Assembly: GCA_050507695.1 (NCBI GenBank) | Contig: CP191473.1 | Coordinates: forward strand, 3,307,888 to 3,331,887 | DNA: 24,000 nt | Source: Salmonella enterica | Lineage (GTDB): Bacteria; Pseudomonadota; Gammaproteobacteria; Enterobacterales; Enterobacteriaceae | Direction of reading: 5' to 3' | Part shown: positions 5,674-15,709 of the stretch, piece after piece | How the letters are laid out: every line of letters starts with the position of its first letter | Position numbering within the stretch: the stretch's first letter is position 1 | The notes under the pieces: generated by a model | Seen by the model: only the letters and a program-made list of their open reading frames with translations | The model's database searches: none | Told to the model about the DNA's origin: nothing | Position numbers and translations under genes: made by a program

Positions 5674-6765
5674 TTACTTCACCGTTCCCTTTATCCCATG
5701 GGGTTCGGCACGTCGATATTGTGGTGCGATATACACTGCTCCGTGCAATGTGGCCGCAGCATGCCACGGCCAGCGCGGATCGTAGAGTGCGCCTCGTGCC
5801 AGCGCGATAAAATCGGCATCGCCCTGTTGCAGAATATCTTCAGCATGCTGCGCCTCGGTGATCAAACCAACCGCGACCACTGGCATTTTGGTGCGTTGAC
5901 GCAGCGTGCTGGCAAACGGAACCTGATAACCAGGTGCCACTGTAATATGCTGTAGAGGAGAAAGGCCACCGCTGGAAACATGCAGATAGTCTCCCCCCAG
6001 CGCCTCGATTTTTTGTGCCAGCACAGCAGATTGCTCTACATCCCATCCTCCTTCTACCCAATCGGTAGCGGAGATGCGAATACCGACGGCAACTGATGAA
6101 GGCACCGCTTCACGTACCGCCCTAAAAACATCAAGCGTGAAACGCAGACGATTTTCAAGGCTTCCGCCATACTCATCGGTGCGCTGATTTGAAAGTGGCG
6201 ATAAAAACTGATGCAGTAAATAACCGTGCGCAGCGTGGATTTCGATAAGCTCGATGCCTAGCTTGACCGCGCGCAGGGCGCTATCAACGAAAGCCTGCTT
6301 AACTCGCACTAAATCCTGCAATGACATCTCGTTCGGCGGAATATCGGTTTCGGCATAAGCCTGTGCAGAAGGCGCGAGGGTCTGCCAGCCACCCGCCTGA
6401 GGCGATAGCTGTTTTCCTCCCAACCACGGGGCGCTGCAGGAAGCTTTACGCCCTGCATGACCTAACTGGATACCGATTTTTACCGGTGAATAGTGACGGA
6501 TATCCGCAATAACACTCTGCAGGGCTTGTTCCGTTTCATCATTCCACAAGCCAAGATCTTGTGGCGAAATACGGCCTTCAGGCTCAACGGCTGTCGCTTC
6601 GATGATCACTAAACCTGCTCCGGATAGTGCCAGGTTGCCCAGATGAATACGATGCCAGGCAGTGGCTTTCCCCTCATCGGCAGAGTACTGGCACATGGGC
6701 GCAATAATGATACGGTTATCCAATACAAGATTGCCGATTTTGGCTTGCGAAAATAACTTGCTCAT
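5674..6765 (-). CDS. NADH:flavin oxidoreductase, Old Yellow Enzyme family (XenA/YqjM-like)
   Basis: 363 aa. APMCQY, HLGNLA..GAGL.IIEATAV.PEGRI, HAGRKAS, IEIHAAHGYLLHQFLSP..N.RTDEYGGS and the C-terminal ARG.LYDPRWPWHAA all match the XenA-type OYE subclass by eye. Confidence 0.9.
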   Translation of the reverse strand: MSKLFSQAKIGNLVLDNRIIIAPMCQYSADEGKATAWHRIHLGNLALSGAGLVIIEATAVEPEGRISPQDLGLWNDETEQALQSVIADIRHYSPVKIGIQLGHAGRKASCSAPWLGGKQLSPQAGGWQTLAPSAQAYAETDIPPNEMSLQDLVRVKQAFVDSALRAVKLGIELIEIHAAHGYLLHQFLSPLSNQRTDEYGGSLENRLRFTLDVFRAVREAVPSSVAVGIRISATDWVEGGWDVEQSAVLAQKIEALGGDYLHVSSGGLSPLQHITVAPGYQVPFASTLRQRTKMPVVAVGLITEAQHAEDILQQGDADFIALARGALYDPRWPWHAAATLHGAVYIAPQYRRAEPHGIKGTVK

Positions 6766-7468
6766 ATCTTATCCTTTCCAGCTAAACATGTTTTCCCAGC
6801 GGTAAAAGACAACTCAATGCTTTGTTGAATTATTAAAAATAATCAATGAATGACTATCTGTCAGATCATTGGGCATGTCGTTGGTGGGATGTGCTATTTA
6901 AAGCAGTAAGTAGCCGGTTTGGCCCGCTTACCCGGATGAGTTAAGAAGTTGTCACGGGCAGCTGAGCAAGCTTCCTCCACAAAATGGTTAAGTTTTTCCT
7001 GTTGCTGTGAATGAGGCGGTGAAAAAAGAAATAAAAACCGAGCATCGTATTGACATTAACGAATGCAACGCCCATTTAGTCGCAAAGAGTCAGCACTCCC
7101 GTACAGGAAGAGTAAAATACTGCAATTTAAAATAAACAACTGTGAACAATATATTTTACAGACCAAAAACAAACGGCTCTTTACAGCAAAGTTGTCGTTT
7201 ACCTGTTAAGGATTCTGCTTAAGCAGTCATTATTGACGCCTTGCCCGAGGGTACTAAAAAATTTCCTTGATAAGAATTATCAAAAAATGTAACGCCATAT
7301 TGCAGCGATTGAACTTCCTGCGATTTACTTCCATCAGATGACCTGCAACTCATAGGGTTGCATATTGGTACATATATTTGATAAAACATGGCACGCTGTA
7401 TTGATCTTTATGTCGTTATCTATAAAAATTAAATGGAAACCTTTATTTCCATGACAAGGAGTGAAGTG

Positions 7469-7873
7469 ATGTCCGAAGCACTTAAAGCATTAAATAACAT
7501 TCGTACCCTACGAGTTCAATCTCGCGAAGTAACTCTTGAAACACTTGAAGAGATGCTTGAAAAGCTCTCTGTCGTTGTTGAAGAGCGTCGCGAAGAAGAA
7601 GCCTCTTTGCGTAAAGAGCAGGAAGAGAAAGAGGCAAAGCTTGCCGCTTTCCGTCAAAAATTATTGGATGAAGGTATCGATCCAACTGAACTTTTATCCT
7701 CTTTAAAAGGACAAGCGCCTAAATCAAAATCAGGCCGTGCCCCTCGTCCTGCCAAATATAAGTATGTGGATGAAGATGGCAGCGAAAAAACCTGGACTGG
7801 CCAGGGTCGTACGCCAAAAGCAATCGCCAGGGCACTTGAAGAAGGTAAAAAACTGGAAGATTTTGCCATCTAA
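7469..7873 (+). CDS. H-NS family nucleoid-associated protein (H-NS/StpA/Hfp-like paralogue)
   Basis: 134 aa from the ATG at 7469, with AAGGAG 7 nt upstream. [15 protein letters not shown]...[20 protein letters not shown]...[26 protein letters not shown] matches the H-NS dimerisation region and the [12 protein letters not shown]-binding motif. Confidence 0.9.
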
Positions 7874-7880
7874 AAATAGA

Positions 7881-7908
7881 GGGGCAGGCCATACACTGCC
7901 CCTGCTTT
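7881..7908 (+). terminator. Intrinsic terminator of the hns-like gene
   Basis: GGGGCAG (7881-7887) / CTGCCCC (7896-7902) form a stem with an 8-nt loop, followed by tgctttca. Confidence 0.55.
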
Positions 7909-7910
7909 CA

Positions 7911-8697
7911 ATGGCTGAAAATTTAGCGCAAATGGGCGCATCCCCTGTCAGTCTAATCAACTTGCATGGTAATCCAGTTATCTATAAGCAGAACGTAACA
8001 GACGTTGAGCTGAATTTTTATCGCCATGCCGCTGAACCACTTAGCGCAGAAGGGCTACATCTCCCCCCGCCTCATTGGATTAGACATCCCCCGCCAGCAA
8101 CTACTGCTGGAATATATTCCGTTACCCGTTTCACAAGACGAGCTTGGCAGCAGCGATACCATTGTTAATTTATTATCCATTATTCACAAACATCTCCCAG
8201 CCGCACATTATCACTTCAAAAGCCATTGCTGGCGCGAAGATCGTCTCGCAGAGGTCTATCATTTATTAGATTTTTCTAACCAACAGATCGCTATTTTTGA
8301 AAAGCTGAGAACGACCAGTGACATTCTGTTTGCGCCATCCTGCATAATTTCAGGGGACAGCAATGCCGGAAACTGGGGCCGGCGGAGCAATGGTGAGGCT
8401 GTTTTATTTGACTGGGAGCGTTTCGGACAGGGCTCTCCTGCAATTGACCTTGCTCCCTTGATTAAAGGTATGGGCACCACACGTGATTATATCCAGCTGG
8501 CCGAAAGGTATACTCAGATAAACAAGCACTATACGATAAAGCAGCTCAGCCGTGAAATCATGCTCAGCAAGGCCTGGATAGTAACAGAAGTAGTGACGTT
8601 ACTCACTGCAAGGAATAACCGACACCTCTGTGCTTATATTGCGTGGTATAAAGCTCATTTACCGGACTGGTTATCCCATATCCACCAACTGATTTAG
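7911..8697 (+). pseudogene. Aminoglycoside/choline-kinase-fold phosphotransferase family gene, apparently frameshifted near 8052-8068
   Basis: The N-lobe (MAENLAQMG...VIYKQNV..ELNFYRHAAEPLSAEG) reads in the 7737 frame. The rest (ISPRLIGLD...LLLEYIP...ISGDSNAGNW...FDWERFGQGSPAIDLA) reads in the 8026 frame. The span is 787 nt (3n+1), consistent with one extra base near the GGG run (8052-8054) or the C6 run (8063-8068). Confidence 0.6.
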
Positions 8698-8726
8698 TTC
8701 TCTTTAAGCGACGAGACAGCACAGTG

Positions 8727-9707
8727 TTAAAGCGACAGTGCTATCACTGCATCGCCGGAGTGCAAATATTTTTTAGCGTATATGGGTAACGTTTGACAGC
8801 CTCTGCTATTCGTAACGATAACAGGTATTGCTGTATCATATCCAGCCAGTTTGACATTCGCCAGATCGAATGTCAGCAGCAACTCTCCTTTTTTGACGGC
8901 ATCCCCCTCCTTGACCTTCATCTGAAAATATCGACCATCGAGCTGAACGGTATTAATTCCTACATGAATTAAGATGCTGGTTCCAGCTTCTGAGATAATG
9001 CCAATGGCATGACCGCTGGCAAAAGTACTGACAATATGCCCATCTACCGGTGAATATATTCGTCCTTCATCTGGTAAAATGGCAAAACCTGGCCCAACAA
9101 TGCCTGTCGAAAAAACATTATCATCAACATCCATAAGCGGGATTAATGTTCCGGTAGCCGGCGCAGCAATCTGCTCAGGTGGAATGAAGGCTTTCTTTGG
9201 CATTGTTGATTTGAGAGCCAACTCGTTGTTATCCCCTGGTGTGGGCACAGTATGAGCCTTCAGTATGAACGGTTCATCAAATCCAGCAATCAATGCCAGA
9301 ACCAGGCTGCCAATAAATGCGAAGGTACAGCCAAGAGTAAAACCAATGAAAATTTCGCCAAAGAAGATAGGCAGCGCCAGAACTCCGTACATCACCAGCG
9401 TAATTACTGCACGTTTCGTCTTTGAATAGGACATCTGTACATGCGTGGTTAACCCTGTATTGTCTTCGTTCAACGTAGTCAACGCAGCGAAAATTTCCGC
9501 TACACGATCTCCAGGCACTACCTGTAAAACGCCTGCATGGTTAAAAACGGCAATCACCCCATCCAGCGCTTTTAGCCTTGTCAGATTAACTTTTTGATTG
9601 TCAATAATGTCGAAGCGTAGCCGTGTTGCACAGTGCTGTAATGCTGCGACATTGTGTTTTCCCCCCAGCAGCTTAAAAATATCCTCTGCCAGCGCTTTAT
9701 CATTCAT
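8727..9707 (-). CDS. PTS glucose/beta-glucoside-family protein with EIIB and EIIA domains joined by about two TM helices; no EIIC domain
   Basis: The N-terminus LLGGKHNVAALQHCATRLRF carries the EIIB Cys motif. The middle segment VITLVMYGVLALPIFFGEIFIGFTLGCTFAFIGSLVLALIAG is hydrophobic. The C-terminus DNVFSTGIVGPGFAILP...GHAIGI...ILIHVGINTVQLDG is EIIA-Glc type with both His residues. At 326 aa it is far shorter than the about 625-aa BglF. Confidence 0.8.
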   Translation of the reverse strand: MNDKALAEDIFKLLGGKHNVAALQHCATRLRFDIIDNQKVNLTRLKALDGVIAVFNHAGVLQVVPGDRVAEIFAALTTLNEDNTGLTTHVQMSYSKTKRAVITLVMYGVLALPIFFGEIFIGFTLGCTFAFIGSLVLALIAGFDEPFILKAHTVPTPGDNNELALKSTMPKKAFIPPEQIAAPATGTLIPLMDVDDNVFSTGIVGPGFAILPDEGRIYSPVDGHIVSTFASGHAIGIISEAGTSILIHVGINTVQLDGRYFQMKVKEGDAVKKGELLLTFDLANVKLAGYDTAIPVIVTNSRGCQTLPIYAKKYLHSGDAVIALSL

Positions 9708-9764
9708 TGTGATAACGTCCGAAAATATCTTTTAAGACACTCGCGCCAGTCACTTATCATCTGT

Positions 9765-10592
9765 TTAGCCACGCAACCGATTAATATGGATAGTCAAAAA
9801 CATTATTTCATCCGTGGTTAACTGACATTGATAATTTTTAACCACATAGTCGTCGATTTTCACTGCGCAAGAGTATGCGCGTGGCATTAACTGGATAATT
9901 CCTTGATAGATGCTGTCGTCACCCTGGGTAATTACTTTTCGATTGAGTAAACGCAGGGCGAAAAATTTCAGATGGGTAATGAAACGCTGATAATCCAAAG
10001 ACTCTTCGTTAAAAGTGATATGAAGATCATATTTGAGGATCGTTAATACATCTTTAATTATCGTAGCACTCTGCATAATAGTATGCATATCACTATTGTT
10101 TTTGGCGTTTGCCAGATGCAGGGCGATAAATCCGGCCTCATCCTCGGGCAAACTGATATTGAGCTTTCTTTTAATTAACGCCAACGCTTCCAGACCGACG
10201 GCAAACTCTTGCGCATAGAAACGCTTTATATCCCAGAGCAAAAAATTTTTTATTACCAGACCATTTAGTTGACGCTGCAGAGCAAAATTAATATGGTCAC
10301 TCAAGGCCAAAAAGAGCGTATCTTGCACGGTTATGGCCAGTCGCTGCTGCGCCAGGGCAATAATTTGCTGCGTAACAGCTAAATAGGGAGCGGGTATTTC
10401 TGCCAAAAGCTGTGCTAAAACATCAGCCAGCCCTTCGCTTTTTTTAACAAATGTGCTCTCAATCTGGCTATCATCAATTCTGTCACCTGTTTTTTTACCA
10501 AAACCGATCCCCCGCCCAATTGCCACGATCTCTTCTTGCTTCGCGGTCGTAAGCAGGACAGCGTTATTGCTGAGTATTTTTTCTACTTTCAT
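9765..10592 (-). CDS. BglG/LicT/SacY-family transcription antiterminator (CAT domain + two PRDs)
   Basis: 275 aa. MKVEKILSNNAVLL......IVAIGRGIGFGKK.GD.ID is the CAT RNA-binding domain, and PRD His contexts are present (FIALHLANA, MFLTIHINR). GAAGG lies upstream of the ATG. Confidence 0.9.
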   Translation of the reverse strand: MKVEKILSNNAVLLTTAKQEEIVAIGRGIGFGKKTGDRIDDSQIESTFVKKSEGLADVLAQLLAEIPAPYLAVTQQIIALAQQRLAITVQDTLFLALSDHINFALQRQLNGLVIKNFLLWDIKRFYAQEFAVGLEALALIKRKLNISLPEDEAGFIALHLANAKNNSDMHTIMQSATIIKDVLTILKYDLHITFNEESLDYQRFITHLKFFALRLLNRKVITQGDDSIYQGIIQLMPRAYSCAVKIDDYVVKNYQCQLTTDEIMFLTIHINRLRG

Positions 10593-10691
10593 TTCAGCCT
10601 TCTCGCCCTGTGTCCCTTGCCCCAGGTTCTGAAATTCACATACATCAGCGATTACAGAACGTCATCCCACAGATCCATCTTCAGAAAAGAT

Positions 10692-10747
10692 GTAAAAAAA
10701 AACCCGATTCCATTAAATCAGCAAGCGCTTTTTAATAGAATCAGGTT
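10692..10747 (-). terminator. Strong intrinsic terminator in the leader of the antiterminator gene
   Basis: On the minus strand AACCTGATTCTATTAAA pairs with TTTAATGGAATCGGGTT, a 17-bp stem with two G.U pairs and a 13-nt loop. A T9 run follows. It lies about 100 nt upstream of the ATG at 10592. Confidence 0.75.
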
Positions 10748-10775
10748 TCGCTCAGTCCTTTCCTGATGACGTCCC
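10741..10775 (-). promoter_or_regulatory. RAT-like (ribonucleic antiterminator) element overlapping the 5' arm of the terminator
   Basis: The minus strand reads GGGACGTCATCAGGAAAGGACTGAGCGAAACCTGA. Its 3' part GCGAAACCTGA matches the bgl/sac RAT 3' consensus GCAAAACCTGA at 10 of 11 positions and shares AACCTGA with the terminator stem. Confidence 0.55.
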
Positions 10776-10883
10776 TTTATAACTCTTATATCTAATCAAT
10801 CACCATTGCTCAACCCCTCAGGATTAGAAATGTGATGATTATCATAACAGCCACATAATGTTTGGTATATAAAGCCCCCTTTT

Positions 10884-11291
10884 TCACTCAAAAAATAATG
10901 GGCAGCTGCGGTCGATTGATTGACACTCCCCAGAATAAAGCAGGCATTGTTTACAAGTCTGTACCAACGCCCATCCCTGAACAAGGGTTAATAATGGCCC
11001 GGTATTAAACTCTGGCAAACAATCATCAATATAAAGATAATAAGCATCAATCACCCGCTTAATGTCATTTAACTCGTTCTTTTCTCTCAATAATTGCCAG
11101 ATGGTACAAAAGTAACGAGCGTGTAATCTGTTCTGCTTATCCAAAAACCACTCGTTGGTAAATGGATACACTTTTCTTTTATTGTTTGCTGTTTTTCCTT
11201 GTTCAGCAATGAGCTGCACGCGAGCATCATTACTCACCAGGAATAGTGCCAACGAAATTTTTTGCATTTCAACATATAGATAATTATTCAT
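10884..11291 (-). CDS. FlhC-family transcriptional regulator-like protein, probably frameshifted (C-terminal continuation in the 10796..10984 frame)
   Basis: YPFTNEWFLDKQNRLHARYFCTIWQLL...VIDAYYLYIDDC...GPLLTLVQGWALV parallels E. coli FlhC [27 protein letters not shown]...VIKAYRLYLEQC...GPLLALTRAWTLV. The stop falls right after the T6-A5-G5 homopolymer cluster. The adjacent frame supplies ...LCGC.... Confidence 0.6.
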   Translation of the reverse strand: MNNYLYVEMQKISLALFLVSNDARVQLIAEQGKTANNKRKVYPFTNEWFLDKQNRLHARYFCTIWQLLREKNELNDIKRVIDAYYLYIDDCLPEFNTGPLLTLVQGWALVQTCKQCLLYSGECQSIDRSCPLFFE

Positions 11292-11449
11292 TATAACAGA
11301 GATAAAAAGACATTAACTATTTAAGGTTATTTAGTTAATCATACATATTAAATATAACTTTTCCAGACATATTTCACTTCACTTAAAAAAATTATATAAC
11401 TCACAAAAAAACATATGCCATGTTAGTCTTAATGACTTCTTAATAAACA

Positions 11450-11467
11450 GATAAATGATCATTTATC
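11450..11467. promoter_or_regulatory. Perfect 18-bp palindrome GATAAATGATCATTTATC in an AT-rich intergenic region
   Basis: Exact dyad symmetry, read directly. Each arm, GATAAAT, resembles the H-NS high-affinity motif TCGATAAATT. The whole element loosely resembles a Fur box. It lies about 160 bp upstream of the FlhC-like start. Confidence 0.35.
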
Positions 11468-11584
11468 AGACAACTATTGATGCAAAAAACAGCAACAGTA
11501 AAAACCAGCATAAATATTATTTAAAGTAGCAGTTTAAACTATATCATTACTACATCACATATTCGTTGTTGCACAGAAAATTTA

Positions 11585-11992
11585 TTATTTAAAATAGCCG
11601 AGCTCCTTACAAACTTTAATCGCCGCAAAGACCCCCGCATCATCACTATTAAACGCGATAACTTGTGCGTGGATATGATTATTTTTATTCATCAGCATAA
11701 CCAGAAAAGGTGTAAAACCGGCATACGCACCATAGGAATTTTTCCCATTAACATAGCCGCAATATTCGCCTTTACCATTTGCAATATATTTCGAATGCCG
11801 AAATTCCGCACTAGCGGGGTCTTTTAGTTTTTCTTTTATAGACTTTTCTATTGCTGCTTGTTCATCAAAAGAGAGGACGCGCCACTGCGCTGGCTGCATC
11901 GGGGTTATTGCCATATCTGATTGTTTATGGGATGCAGCCAAAACCGGTCCCGCCATCAACAGTACAGCCAGAACGATAAATATCTTTTTCAT
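11585..11992 (-). CDS. Hypothetical secreted protein with a signal peptide
   Basis: 135-aa ORF. MKKIFIVLAVLLMAGPVLAAS is a typical Sec signal ending in an AxA-like cleavage site. No family was recognised. AT-rich spacers of about 300 bp and 250 bp flank it. Confidence 0.6.
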   Translation of the reverse strand: MKKIFIVLAVLLMAGPVLAASHKQSDMAITPMQPAQWRVLSFDEQAAIEKSIKEKLKDPASAEFRHSKYIANGKGEYCGYVNGKNSYGAYAGFTPFLVMLMNKNNHIHAQVIAFNSDDAGVFAAIKVCKELGYFK

Positions 11993-12180
11993 ATCCTTGT
12001 CTCATTATCCATTTATACTGCTGAGGCAATAGTAACAGGTATTTATTTTAGAAAAAACGTATAAACAAAATAATTTAACTTATACAAAATATGAATGTTT
12101 TAATTAAAAAATATAAAAACAAATAGTTCAACATTCACTGAGTGGATATTGAGTTACTTTTGAATAAAAATATATGAAGT

Positions 12181-12238
12181 AAAAAATTAACCCTCCAGGA
12201 TTGAATAATACACTTCATTTTATTGTTCAACGCTGGAG
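12181..12238 (-). terminator. Probable intrinsic terminator of the phospholipid operon
   Basis: On the minus strand CTCCAG...CTGGAG form the outer stem with inner AT pairing (AATAA/TTATT). GGTTAATTTTTT follows. Confidence 0.5.
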
Positions 12239-12247
12239 CAGGATCGT

Positions 12248-12394
12248 CTACGGGGTCAGTGCAGAATGCAATAACAGTTTGACCTTAACGACCGCAGAAG
12301 CCAGCATCATCCCCAGAATTTTAGGGGCATAGTCATGGATCCAGGTAGAGACCAGTTCATCGACAATGTGCTGCAGACGCCCGTCCTGACTCAT
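12248..12394 (-). CDS. 48-codon ORF translationally coupled to the acyltransferase gene (hypothetical small protein)
   Basis: Hand-translated as MSQDGRLQHIVDELVSTWIHDYAPKILGMMLASAVVKVKLLLHSALTP. Its ATG overlaps the upstream TGA (ATGA at 12391-12394). It is below the 60-aa cutoff of the ORF track. Confidence 0.35.
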   Translation of the reverse strand: MSQDGRLQHIVDELVSTWIHDYAPKILGMMLASAVVKVKLLLHSALTP

Positions 12395-13023
12395 GTAACT
12401 TTCCTTGTCGCCTGCTGTTGTAATGTGACGAAACGAGTGAGTAACGATTGCTTAAAGGTGACTTTGTCCGCGTCATAAAACAGCGGTTCGTCGATAAATA
12501 TGTCGATAAAAAACGGCACGGGGATTTTCTGCCCTTTGCCCATGGAACGGTCCAGGCCGTGCATATAGACAGGAATAATCGGCACCTCCGGGCACTGCAG
12601 GCTCAAATGCCAGATGCCGGATTTGATCTCTGAAAATTTCCCCGGCTCACCGCGCGTGCCTTCGGGAAAAATAATCACAATTTTCTTTGCTGCCAGCGCA
12701 TCGGCGCAGGCCTGTAACGGATTTGCCTGATAGGCTCCGCGATAAACAGGAATGATGCCGATGACCTTCAGGGCGAACCAGCTAATCACTTTGTTTCGCA
12801 GGAAATAGTCTGCCGCCGCCACGGGCTGCACATTCACCAGAGTTGAAAGTGGAAACAGCGTGAACAGCGTCAGCACATCCAGATGGCTGTTGTGGTTCGC
12901 GACGATAATAGCCGGGCCTTCCACTGGCAGCTTTTTGCGGCCGGACACACGAACGCCCAGCCAAATCCAGACCACGGGGTACGCGATGCACAGCATAAAG
13001 ATCCAGCGCAGAAAACGGTTCAT
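12391..13023 (-). CDS. 1-acyl-sn-glycerol-3-phosphate (lysophospholipid) acyltransferase, PlsC family
   Basis: 210 aa with an N-terminal TM. The acyltransferase motifs NHNSHLD (HX4D) and IFPEGTRG are present. The start lies 9 nt after the upstream stop. Confidence 0.85.
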   Translation of the reverse strand: MNRFLRWIFMLCIAYPVVWIWLGVRVSGRKKLPVEGPAIIVANHNSHLDVLTLFTLFPLSTLVNVQPVAAADYFLRNKVISWFALKVIGIIPVYRGAYQANPLQACADALAAKKIVIIFPEGTRGEPGKFSEIKSGIWHLSLQCPEVPIIPVYMHGLDRSMGKGQKIPVPFFIDIFIDEPLFYDADKVTFKQSLLTRFVTLQQQATRKVT

Positions 13024-13032
13024 CTGCGCCCC

Positions 13033-13962
13033 TTATATATAGAAGTAGTAATAGAAGTGGAAAAACAGTGGCGCGGTGTAAATCAGCGAATCCAGACGGT
13101 CAAGAATACCGCCGTGCCCCGGCAGTAGTTTCCCGGAGTCTTTCACGCCAAAATCTCGTTTGATTGCCGACATCACCACATCGCCACAGAACCCGCTCAG
13201 GCCGATAATCACCCCAGCTTCCAGCGAATGTTTCCAGTTCATCGGCGTCAGAAGCGGACCGAAAATAGCCGCCAGCAGCGTGGTGGTCAGCACACCCCCC
13301 AGCAATCCGGCCAGCGTTTTATTCGGGCTGACCTTCGGCGTGACCTTAATTTTGCCCAGCGATTTCCCCCACAGATATTGGGAAATATCGTTAAGCTCGG
13401 TGGTCGCCACCAGGAATATCACCAGCAGTGCACCTGCTTTGATATCCACGCCTGGTAGCATCATCAGGAATGCGACATGGCTTAAAGCAAAGACCGTAGT
13501 CATCATGCCCCAGTGCATGACGGATGCAGAGTGTAAAAAACCTTTTGTATCGCCAACGAGCACCATGCGGGCGGGCAGGAATAAAAAGACGTAAATCGGG
13601 ATGAAGATAATAAACATGCCGTACCACGCCATCCCCACCCAGATATATTGCAGCGGGATAGCGGCGTACATCCACAGCAATGGCACGCTGTCGGAGCGGC
13701 GAGTCGGCGCCAGCGTCAGATATTCCTTCAGTGACAGGAAGCTGAGAAATCCGAAGAAGGTAAGTGCCAGCCCTTTGGGTGAAAGCATCGCCAGCGAAAA
13801 TAAGCCAACGATAACCCACCAGCTATTGATCCGTTGCTGCAGCTCAAGCCAGTCACGCTGCGGGCGGAACTTTTTTAGAACGAAGATGATAACGGTCGCC
13901 AGCACTAAAACGCTGAAGATCCCGCTGAGGCAGTAATACAAAGTGCGCAGAGAATCAGGCAT
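13033..13962 (-). CDS. Phosphatidate cytidylyltransferase (CDP-diglyceride synthase), CdsA/YnbB-like
   Basis: The C-terminal signature SAIKRDFGVKDSGKLLPGHGGILDRLDS is present in a polytopic protein. I prefer the ATG at 13962, which has GGAGG 7 nt upstream and overlaps the upstream gene end by 8 nt, over the track start at 14049. Confidence 0.85.
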   Translation of the reverse strand: MPDSLRTLYYCLSGIFSVLVLATVIIFVLKKFRPQRDWLELQQRINSWWVIVGLFSLAMLSPKGLALTFFGFLSFLSLKEYLTLAPTRRSDSVPLLWMYAAIPLQYIWVGMAWYGMFIIFIPIYVFLFLPARMVLVGDTKGFLHSASVMHWGMMTTVFALSHVAFLMMLPGVDIKAGALLVIFLVATTELNDISQYLWGKSLGKIKVTPKVSPNKTLAGLLGGVLTTTLLAAIFGPLLTPMNWKHSLEAGVIIGLSGFCGDVVMSAIKRDFGVKDSGKLLPGHGGILDRLDSLIYTAPLFFHFYYYFYI

Positions 13963-14557
13963 TCTTGACCTCCAGCGCGCTACGGCAGCGGTTGATTGAG
14001 GTCCAGGCCAACGGCCCTGCCAAAGCACCAAAGACGATATTGGCAACAATGGGGTATTGCGGCCAAAGCGCGATAAAAAAACCTAAAGCCCCCAGAACAA
14101 AGGCACGGTCACTTTTGCCCATCGGGCCACGATAATTTCGGCTACCCGTCAGCGTCTGGGCGATGACGCCGCAAAACTCTGTCAGCCACGACAGTAGTAC
14201 CACCAGCACAACCAGCCACGGAGAAACTCCGGTCAAAAAAGCAAACGCGAGATAGAGCGCGGCATCAGCGATAATGTCGCCGACCTCATTGAGAATCGCT
14301 CCAGGCACGGATTGCTGGTTAAACTCCCGCGCTAACATGCCGTCGATAGCATTCAGCGCCATACGGAACAATAAGAAGACCGGAAGTGAGATAAAAAACA
14401 GAGGATTCGGGAAACACATCAGCACGCCGCCGAGCAGAACCGAGGCCAGCATTGCCAATAGTGTTACCTGGTTTGCCGTCGCCCCCATGACATGCAGTCT
14501 GACGACGGTGGGTCGAAGTAAATTCTGAAACTGAGGTTTGATATCATACAACGTCAC
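13955..14557 (-). CDS. CDP-alcohol phosphatidyltransferase family protein (YnbA-like)
   Basis: 200 aa with a GTG start and AGGAG upstream. It carries the motif DGMLAREFNQQSVPGAILNEVGDIIAD (DGx2ARx8Gx3Dx3D). The N-terminus MTLYDIKPQFQNLLRP resembles E. coli YnbA as I recall it. Confidence 0.85.
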   Translation of the reverse strand: MTLYDIKPQFQNLLRPTVVRLHVMGATANQVTLLAMLASVLLGGVLMCFPNPLFFISLPVFLLFRMALNAIDGMLAREFNQQSVPGAILNEVGDIIADAALYLAFAFLTGVSPWLVVLVVLLSWLTEFCGVIAQTLTGSRNYRGPMGKSDRAFVLGALGFFIALWPQYPIVANIVFGALAGPLAWTSINRCRSALEVKNA

Positions 14558-14589
14558 GTTATGGCTCCTGCCTTCTGTTTGACGGTTTT

Positions 14590-15042
14590 CTATTTCAATG
14601 GCCCAACCACCGCCACAAACTGCGCATTTTCATCCATCGGGATATCGAGGTTGACCGTCTGACCGGGGTTAACCATTACAGCGCATAGCGATTCCAACCC
14701 ACCATCAAACAGACCGGATGGGTGGCGGTATTTCCTGCCACCACACGGAGACATCGGTATCCGGTTGGGTCATTACTGCCTCATCCAGAAATACACAATG
14801 TGCAAATTTAATTTCATCGGCAAAAGTATTAGGCGCACCAATGCATGGTGTTTTTGCTGAACTTGCCCGCTCATTTTTTCACAGTGTTGATAAGGGCTAT
14901 ATCGACAATCACACCGGGAATATTCCTGATGGCTAAAGTCAGGAGCCATGTCCCCGAAATATATTATCGCTGGATGCAGGTGTGATAGCTTTTGCCTGAA
15001 TATCCGTCCCGGAATGCGTTGAAGGCACGTTGTTATATCCAT
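14590..15042 (-). pseudogene. Decayed gene remnant spread over three frames; possibly a TssJ/SciN-like small beta-sandwich lipoprotein
   Basis: Colinear fragments appear in different frames: ...TDIQAKAITPASSDNIFRGHGS, IPGVIVDIALINTVKK, FADEIKFAHCVFLDEAV and LCAVMVNPGQTVNLDIPMDENAQFVAVVGPLK*. The last one fits the L.PG....L......A.FVGVVA pattern of T6SS TssJ C-termini. No signal peptide or lipobox is left. Confidence 0.3.
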
Positions 15043-15394
15043 GATTAGAATAATAATTATTGTCTACAATGGTATTGGTGTGCGATACGACAGGCAATGA
15101 AACGGGTGTTACAAAGTGTAACCAAGAAGATATTTCACTCTCACAAACCTTGCCACATGCTGAATTGGAATTAATCTAAAAATATCCAAAACGTCTATTC
15201 AATAATTTATTATTTTATTCAGGCACTAAAAACATTCACACAAAAAATATATAGCCATAAATCATTGCCAAAAAAATTTATAACATCCAGCCAAAACGTA
15301 AGCATTAATTCCCAACCACAACAACTGTGCATGTATGGAGAAAGTCTGACCCGCAACGGGTAATTCAGATGCTTCAGAGCCGTTGATAATATTA

Positions 15395-15614
15395 TGTAGA
15401 TTCAATTGGTCAACGCAACAGTCATGTGAAAACATCTGGTTGCGAAAAATTTTTGGATGAGACGGAAATTTACAGCAAAGGAAAAAGCATTTGTTTTTGA
15501 ACTGTGGAAGAACGGAACAAGCTTCAGTGAGATAGCTAATATCCTGGTTCGAAATCAGGAACTATCTTCCCTATGTTAAGAGATACTGGCAGAATAAATC
15601 CCAATGAACGCGAG
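15395..15614 (+). mobile_element. IS30-family remnant: left terminal inverted repeat plus a frameshifted, 3'-truncated transposase N-terminus
   Basis: TGTAGATTCAATTGGTCAACGCAACAG at 15395 matches the IS30 IRL as I recall it. The ATG at 15457 gives MRRKFTAKEKAFVFELWKNGTSFSEIANIL, against IS30 MRRTFTAEEKASVFELWKNGTGFSEIANILGSKPGTIFTMLRD. After a 1-nt shift the reading continues GSKSGTIFPMLRDTGRINPNER and then homology stops. Confidence 0.75.
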
Positions 15615-15632
15615 ATAACTTATTGTTTTTTA

Positions 15633-15709
15633 TGGTACGCCCTGTAGGATTCGAACCTACGACCTACGGCTTAGAAGGCCGTTGCTCTATCCAACTGAGC
15701 TAAGGGCGC
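15633..15709 (-). tRNA. argU: tRNA-Arg (anticodon UCU)
   Basis: The reverse complement GCGCCCTTAGCTCAGTTGGATAGAGCAACGGCCTTCTAAGCCGTAGGTCGTAGGTTCGAATCCTACAGGGCGTACCA folds as a cloverleaf. The anticodon loop is CU-UCU-AA, CCA is encoded, and the sequence is close to E. coli argU. Confidence 0.95.

Follow-up and report, generated by a model that had tools for sequence, protein, structure and literature searches.

The window analyzed here is a stretch of 24,000 nucleotides (nt) from a Salmonella enterica genome (contig CP191473.1, positions 3,307,888 to 3,331,887), and its locus of interest is a run of four minus-strand reading frames at window positions 12248-14557, three of which encode phospholipid enzymes: a CDP-alcohol phosphatidyltransferase resembling Escherichia coli YnbA, a CdsA paralogue resembling YnbB, and an acyltransferase. 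We consider it probable, at roughly 0.68, that this locus is a deletion derivative of a six-gene lipid operon of the Arc1/ynb type (Arc1 being antagonism resistance cluster 1 of Pseudomonas aeruginosa), in which these three genes, hereafter the trio, have been kept functional with an Arc1-like role in membrane lipid. In window coordinates, the locus and the gene remnant directly upstream of it comprise the following features.

14602-14724, minus strand: stump of tssJ (type VI secretion lipoprotein), directly upstream of ynbA, detected by tblastn with the TssJ of Scandinavium locus L014
13955-14557, minus strand: ynbA-like CDP-alcohol phosphatidyltransferase gene, 200 amino acids (aa), GTG start, PF01066 at 39 bits
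13033-13962, minus strand: ynbB-like CdsA paralogue gene, 309 aa from the ATG at 13962, PF01148 at 224 bits
12391-13023, minus strand: PlsC-superfamily (LPLAT) acyltransferase gene, 210 aa, PF01553 at 85 bits, third gene of the ancestral operon as reconstructed below
12248-12394, minus strand: ynbC pseudogene stump, first annotated as a mini-ORF, 48 codons, recognized by blastn and tblastn against ynbC of loci L013-L019

The coupled trio and its truncated fourth gene

The trio is real, intact and translationally coupled. The ynbA-like and ynbB-like genes overlap by 8 nt, a 9-nt gap separates the latter from the acyltransferase gene, and an ATGA overlap joins the acyltransferase gene to the stump, just as the first-pass annotation, made from the letters of this DNA alone, had described. 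A Yersinia relative (L019) repeats these junctions exactly (overlaps of 8 and 4 nt on either side of a 9-nt gap), and its fourth gene is a full-length ynbC of 587 aa. Matches of the three window proteins to PF01066, PF01148 and PF01553 all exceed the Pfam cut-offs, including that of the YnbA-like protein (39 bits against a cut-off of 22), and the domain search returned no match for the 48-codon fourth frame. The proposed resemblance of the first two genes to E. coli ynbA and ynbB was borne out by protein identities of 52% and 56%, respectively. A Shine-Dalgarno-like GGCAGGAG lies upstream of the GTG start of the ynbA-like gene. For the ynbB-like gene, the TTG at 14049 that would open the longest reading frame was rejected as the start, having no support from relatives, and the 309 aa read from the ATG match the homologue length. 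Among the motifs claimed for these translations, HX4D (as HNSHLD) and FPEGTRG in the acyltransferase and the PGHGGILDRLDS signature are present, while the literal DGx2ARx8Gx3Dx3D of the phosphatidyltransferase is not.

The fourth reading frame, judged by its alignment to relatives, is a dead stump of ynbC. It keeps the native ynbC start within the ATGA overlap and continues into three collinear scraps of ynbC, with matches to residues about 47-57 and 120-148 of E. coli YnbC. Aligned with the nearest relatives, which are ~90% identical in nucleotides across the three genes, the scraps fall as follows.

Scrap 1: window 12394-12377, relative's locus 6630-6647
Scrap 2: window 12383-12350, relative's locus 6770-6803
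Scrap 3: window 12355-12274, relative's locus 6990-7071

The two internal deletions of the stump (129 and 192 nt) both lie at microhomologies of 6-7 nt and are both in frame, a joint outcome with a chance of about 1 in 9, and it is because both are in frame that the native start still opens a frame of 48 codons. Homology of the window to the relatives' operon ends at 12274; the position of the sixth gene, encoding a membrane protein of ~133 aa, lies beyond that end, no separate genome-wide search for this gene having been made. The window's genome is one 4.68-Mb contig and 100% complete. Apart from the 48-codon stump at the locus, we found no copy of YnbC (a fusion of an alpha/beta hydrolase with Methyltransf_20) in this genome, and YnbD (PAP2 plus dual-specificity phosphatase) is absent from both the window and the genome; nor did the genome contain a relocated ynbC or ynbD or a second ynb cluster.

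Changes that have accumulated in the truncated form were read from L094, a contig from a public run that has the same truncation and, across window positions 5955-15602, an identity of 98.8%. Differences between the two copies are distributed as follows.

ynbA: 4 of 603 nt, 2 synonymous and 2 non-synonymous codon changes
ynbB: 9 of 930 nt, 6 synonymous and 3 non-synonymous codon changes
acyltransferase gene: 10 of 633 nt, 6 synonymous and 4 non-synonymous codon changes
ynbC stump: 7 of 147 nt, 0 synonymous and 7 non-synonymous codon changes, including a nonsense codon that leaves 40 codons

Across the 2166 nt of the trio this amounts to 14 synonymous and 9 non-synonymous codon changes. These counts are small, and they indicate that since the deletion the trio has been under purifying selection and the stump has been drifting. 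The nonsense codon in the L094 stump speaks against selection for the peptide, and the mini-ORF was rejected as a real small protein and as a gene.

Six-gene and trio-only forms of the operon

The wider family was sampled through 80 loci fetched with the acyltransferase, drawn from many phyla and with relatives ranging from 96% to 43% identity. The order ynbA-ynbB-acyltransferase is found in about 70 of them, an arrangement far beyond chance. A six-gene form, ynbA-ynbB-acyltransferase-ynbC-ynbD-small membrane protein, in which the sixth gene has no Pfam match, accounts for 29 loci, and another 32 have the first three genes only. The nearest relatives of the window belong to the six-gene group. 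By this comparison the acyltransferase gene is an ancestral member of the six-gene operon with its place between ynbB and ynbC, and on the strength of this survey, E. coli K-12 represents the form without the acyltransferase and the window the form without the distal half. The idea that an acyltransferase and a mini-ORF had replaced ynbC and ynbD thus did not survive, since the one is ancestral and the other a ynbC remnant, and the description of the module as self-contained gives way to that of a deletion derivative.

The same comparison bears on the reading first offered for this locus, namely a purpose-built, self-contained path from a PlsC-type enzyme through a CdsA-type enzyme to a phosphatidyltransferase, accompanied by a genuine small membrane protein and dedicated to a novel minor phospholipid. 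The domain order and tight coupling of the genes fit such a path, and the trio alone is widespread. However, its fourth component consists of ynbC scraps with a stop in the nearest relative, which refutes this reading for the mini-ORF, relatives at 90% nucleotide identity have six genes rather than three, and the acyltransferase is by its profile scores (below) not orthologous to PlsC. We regard this explanation as very improbable.

The trio order was found in Enterobacterales, Snodgrassella, Andreprevotia, Methylococcaceae, Planctomycetota, Microcystis, Opitutales, Alphaproteobacteria and Gemmatimonadota, and in most of the distant lineages no ynbC or ynbD occurs within 6 kb of it. Trio-only forms also recur inside lineages that carry the six-gene form (L027, L030, L043, L049, L051 and L055, within Enterobacterales and Snodgrassella), and one of these, L030, keeps 84 codons of ynbC. 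L027 comes from another genome of the window's genus (G314, 100% identical to L027); as its trio is 75% identical to that of the window in nucleotides and lies in another context, it is an independent trio-only case. Since the trio is found alone in many phyla, it is probably the functional core of the operon, and the repeated reduction of the system to these three genes marks them as the minimal unit to reconstitute.

Several neighborhoods within this sample are recorded here as observations in their own right. In distant phyla, a search of the neighbors for hints of a head group yielded only scattered methyltransferases, transporters and one unassigned membrane protein. In five distant loci (L065, L070, L074, L086 and L089), mostly from alphaproteobacterial and gammaproteobacterial metagenome-assembled genomes, the gene directly after the trio encodes a polytopic membrane protein (~190 aa) that is conserved among them and matches no Pfam family; it may be an alternative accessory partner. 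In Microcystis (L078, L079 and L092) the trio is followed by a 284-aa protein whose match to YnbC is confined to the methyltransferase half (residues 312-580), the hydrolase domain being absent. On E. coli plasmids, seven places match the module. One of them (L011, NZ_CP027341.1, positions 52460-56562 of a record of ~104 kb) carries ynbA-ynbB-acyltransferase-ynbC followed by a 62-aa ynbD stump and is flanked by remnants of the insertion sequences IS66, IS91 and IS4; the module is therefore also plasmid-borne and is decaying from its distal end there too. The YnbB-like protein of the window is 68% identical to the plasmid copy. Finally, in Citrobacter spp. (L038-L047), ydbH (intermembrane phospholipid transport, PF11739) and a DUF1318 gene lie directly upstream of the six-gene operon, forming a second lipid-related neighborhood distinct from the secretion-related one described next.

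Accessory status, secretion context and predicted chemistry

The first-pass annotation had presumed that the housekeeping phospholipid genes lie elsewhere, and this was confirmed. Beyond the window, the genome has one more gene each for PF01148 and PF01066 and five more for PF01553. Among these are the genuine cdsA (544 bits, with uppS and rseP on its two sides), pgsA (372 bits) and plsC (510 bits), each above its NCBI equivalog cut-off, so that the locus was rejected as the housekeeping pathway. The window proteins, on the other hand, score far below these models: the YnbB-like protein reaches 96 bits against the CdsA equivalog NF008635 (cut-off 385), the YnbA-like protein 25 bits against the PgsA model (cut-off 109), and the acyltransferase 18.5 and 66.5 bits against the PlsC models NF011593 and TIGR00530 (cut-offs 501 and 102.95). 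Given both results, the lipid genes of the window are accessory. The best NCBIfam match of the acyltransferase is an Aas-type lysophospholipid acyltransferase model (73.5 bits).

In ten relatives (Enterobacter, Scandinavium, Pantoea, Erwinia aeris and Citrobacter sp.) core genes of a type VI secretion system (T6SS) flank the operon, which in most of the ten lies between tssM-tssJ and tssF-tssG or tssA/vasL. The window retains a trace of this arrangement: the tssJ stump is 88% identical to residues 111-136 (26 residues) of the Scandinavium TssJ (tblastn, E 1e-10), the identity of the relatives' gene as tssJ being supported by PF12790 at 87.6 bits. Remnants of tssJ directly upstream of ynbA are also present in L094 and Y. 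pestis. As determined by blastn and tblastn, the window and the Yersinia pestis contig L019 have in common the order folD, tRNA-Arg, tssJ remnant, operon, and the position beside tRNA-Arg(TCT) is therefore common to two genera. Two other T6SS clusters, apparently intact (TssC and TssJ hits), lie far from the window at ~1.94-1.95 Mb and at 2.81-2.83 Mb of the genome; the organism is thus T6SS-armed, though the cluster that once flanked the operon is gone.

The tRNA gene, which bears out the tRNA association named in the first-pass annotation, and a hairpin at the other end of the locus are the remaining features.

15633-15709, minus strand: tRNA-Arg(TCT), found by ARAGORN, boundary of the accessory region
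12181-12238, minus strand: weak terminator-like hairpin followed by U6, 3' of the ynbC stump, suggestive only

The hairpin has a minimum free energy of -15.7 kcal/mol and a z-score of -1.59, with 13 of 200 shuffles folding equally well, and it was not listed by a promoter scan of 11900-15700. The identity of the window with L094 extends only as far as 15602, next to the tRNA-Arg 3' end, and upstream of this point L094 instead has an HTH_17 (excisionase-like) gene and a glycosyltransferase gene, so that the tRNA site appears to be an active swap point. A 135-aa reading frame at 10884-11291 on the minus strand matches FlhC (PF05280, 59.7 bits), with no FlhD nearby, and is conserved in L094.

In CDP-alcohol phosphatidyltransferases, the four aspartates of the signature bind catalytic metals or act as base. 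The YnbA-like sequence reads N69-x2-D72-G-x2-A-R-x8-G86-x3-N90-E-x2-D94-x3-D98 and does not conform to the canonical D1-x2-D2-G-x2-AR-x8-G-x3-D3-x3-D4: the second and fourth aspartates are kept and an extra aspartate stands at 98, while the first and third are asparagines (N69 and N90), which align with the first and third signature aspartates of mycobacterial phosphatidylinositol phosphate (PIP) synthase. All 71 of the 71 family members have this variant, and the invariant residues include N69, D72, G73, A76, R77, G86, N90, E91, D94 and D98 as well as a basic RxYxGPxGKSDR block. The strict conservation of asparagine at both positions suggests that the enzyme is active but differs in its metal or acceptor chemistry, and across the YnbA family the replacement of two of the four signature aspartates points to non-canonical chemistry or an unusual acceptor. 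A profile built from 41 YnbA sequences is closest to mycobacterial PIP synthases (E 7.6e-11 over the full length), and an AlphaFold2 model of the window protein (pLDDT 91.3) has PIP synthases as its closest folds in Foldseek (TM 0.72-0.78). Its top NCBIfam models are likewise PIP and archaetidylinositol-phosphate synthases (NF045883 and NF040950), with scores well below the cut-offs (72.6 against 180 bits and 47.9 against 170 bits). A search for inositol-1-phosphate synthase (PF07994) found none in the genome, and for this reason inositol phosphate was rejected as an unlikely acceptor.

Taken with the operon's history, these predictions give the following scheme for the preferred reading. The T6SS genes of this lineage decayed to the tssJ stump, ynbC was cut to its 48-codon remnant and ynbD was lost, with the coupled trio left intact. 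YnbB would make a local pool of CDP-diacylglycerol (CDP-DAG) from phosphatidate, an activity shown for E. coli YnbB; YnbA, resembling a PIP synthase with a modified metal site, would transfer the phosphatidyl group to an acceptor, probably anionic or phosphorylated, to give a phosphatidyl-X(-phosphate); and the acyltransferase would supply phosphatidate or re-acylate lysolipids. Without YnbD, a phosphorylated product would either have to be processed by housekeeping phosphatases or stay phosphorylated. The most likely role of the module, by analogy with Arc1 of P. aeruginosa, is to remodel or repair membrane lipid and in this way to raise tolerance to the phospholipase effectors of rivals. The linear route originally drawn, from lysophosphatidate (lyso-PA) through phosphatidate (PA) and CDP-DAG to a lipid, is a plausible proposal.

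A bolder form of this idea, possible and yet doubtful, makes the trio a self-sufficient catalytic core, in which YnbB would channel CDP-DAG to the Asn-for-Asp YnbA to form an undescribed lipid through an unusual anionic acceptor, and this lipid, or the salvage of phosphatidate and lysolipids after phospholipase attack, would alone confer tolerance to T6SS lipases. If true, it would explain both the carriage of the operon inside T6SS clusters of Enterobacterales and the repeated loss of ynbC, ynbD and the small protein.

The conserved basic RxYxGPxGKSDR motif and the two invariant asparagines of YnbA would also fit an MPIase-type branch, in which YnbB and YnbA together make a lipid resembling GlcNAc-PP-diacylglycerol; the phosphate of a sugar-1-phosphate would be the nucleophile, and the Asp-to-Asn replacements would fit such an anionic acceptor. 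Overproduction of E. coli YnbB raises MPIase, and YnbB has been described as dedicated to MPIase synthesis (PMC6362211, PMC11448367, PMC11413397). However, the MPIase papers credit formation of compound I to CdsA and YnbB themselves and never implicate YnbA, and deletion of ynbB barely alters MPIase (PMC6362211). This branch, with its putative sugar-phosphate acceptor, is improbable, and it is compatible with the preferred reading rather than exclusive of it.

The decay around the trio raises the question of whether the trio itself is a non-functional relic, the not-yet-degraded rest of an operon that is being lost together with its T6SS cluster. In the absence of ynbC, ynbD and the sixth gene, the three genes would then be silent or of no use. 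Its neighbors are all decayed, being the stumps of tssJ and ynbC and, as noted in the first-pass annotation, a stump of IS30; ynbD is gone from the genome, and at the locus the place of the sixth gene falls outside the region of homology. Several further points likewise weigh against a functional, Arc1-like trio. The promoter scan returned 6 sites where 6.3 were expected from shuffles, so that no promoter stands out, and the native promoter may have been lost together with the T6SS genes. Of the genomes sampled, 44 of 301 from the order and 2 of 19 from the family have a YnbA homologue, as does 1 of 19 other species in the genus, and a cluster this rare in genus and family is dispensable. Half of the operon is missing, including its only phosphatase, which may leave the pathway blocked or changed, and the asparagines that occupy two metal-ligand positions could change or weaken catalysis. 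The selection test comprises only 23 codon changes, and the defense role has been demonstrated for no organism but P. aeruginosa and for no form but the complete cluster.

Against a relic stand the three full-length reading frames, in which every invariant family residue is kept, the post-deletion changes, mainly synonymous in the trio as against seven non-synonymous ones including a stop in the adjoining stump, and the trio-only state itself, which is normal in many phyla and has recurred independently in enterics. On this balance we judge a relic unlikely, and a deletion derivative with a trio kept functional is the preferred reading.

Comparison with PIP synthases, E. coli ynbABCD and Arc1

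Both in sequence and among solved structures, YnbA comes closest to actinobacterial PIP synthases (PgsA1/PIPS; PDB 6H53, 6WM5 and 5D92), with which it shares the six-helix CDP-alcohol transferase fold. The full operon, with its downstream phosphatase YnbD, mirrors the logic by which PIP is converted to phosphatidylinositol; the likeness is limited by an identity of only 18-21% and by the asparagines that YnbA has in place of the first and third aspartates.

In E. coli K-12, the ynbABCD operon has ynbA and ynbB homologous to those of the window, in the same order and with overlapping junctions. It retains ynbC and ynbD but has neither a small sixth gene nor an acyltransferase gene interposed between ynbB and ynbC, whereas the window has the acyltransferase gene and lacks ynbC, ynbD and, at the locus, the small gene; furthermore, the K-12 operon is not beside T6SS genes. 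The products of ynbA and ynbB had been called functionally unresolved, which is out of date: E. coli YnbB has been characterized as a CdsA paralogue with an activity of the CDP-DAG synthase type that cannot replace CdsA (PMC6362211), and a defense phenotype has been published for Arc1 (PMC8926400, PMC12663445). Beyond the studies cited here, a literature search for ynbC, ynbD, ynbABCD or the domain combination found no functional study.

Arc1 is the name given by Ting et al. (2022, eLife) to P. aeruginosa PA2541-36 (PMC8926400). Five of its six genes are related to phospholipids and four resemble enzymes of phosphatidylglycerol synthesis; the cluster is needed to survive T6SS attack by Burkholderia thailandensis, with PA2541 and PA2536 as the strongest hits (PMC8926400), and part of the resistance to the lipase effectors TseL and Tle1 was found to come from arc1A (Nat Commun 2025, PMC12663445). 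For comparison, four metagenome contigs were retrieved with the published 21-nt PA2541 primer, one of which (L097) also carries the published 3' end; as the retrieved Pseudomonas contigs end before the sixth gene, the CdsA-like gene PA2536 was taken from the paper's description. These contigs encode a YnbA-like protein that is 54% identical to that of the window and has the same two asparagines, a YnbC-like fusion (55-59%), a YnbD-like phosphatase (43%), an acyltransferase (35%) and a 150-aa protein weakly similar to the enteric sixth gene product (28%, E 6e-6). Because the encoded proteins match, Arc1 is the same gene set as the enteric operon in another order, namely A-C-D-small-acyltransferase-(CdsA-like) in Pseudomonas versus A-B-acyltransferase-C-D-small in enterics.

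Arc1 and the window locus therefore consist of the same protein families, both accessory to housekeeping phospholipid genes, and they differ in that the window is without D, without C apart from its stump and, at the locus, without the small protein. The Gac/Rsm regulation of Arc1 does not apply to the window locus. The locus belongs, in truncated form, to a known system whose biochemistry is unsolved and is not novel in itself. Being a decayed copy it adds little on its own; the comparison supplies the leads toward the Arc1/ynb lipid, namely the embedding in T6SS clusters, the recurring minimal trio and the paired asparagines of the YnbA active site. Arc1 is one of the few known defenses against T6SS attack that are not immunity. 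Its link to T6SS was made by phenotype, whereas that of the window's lineage is by position, inside or next to T6SS clusters, and the enterobacterial operon embedded in such clusters provides independent genomic support for the Arc1 phenotype.

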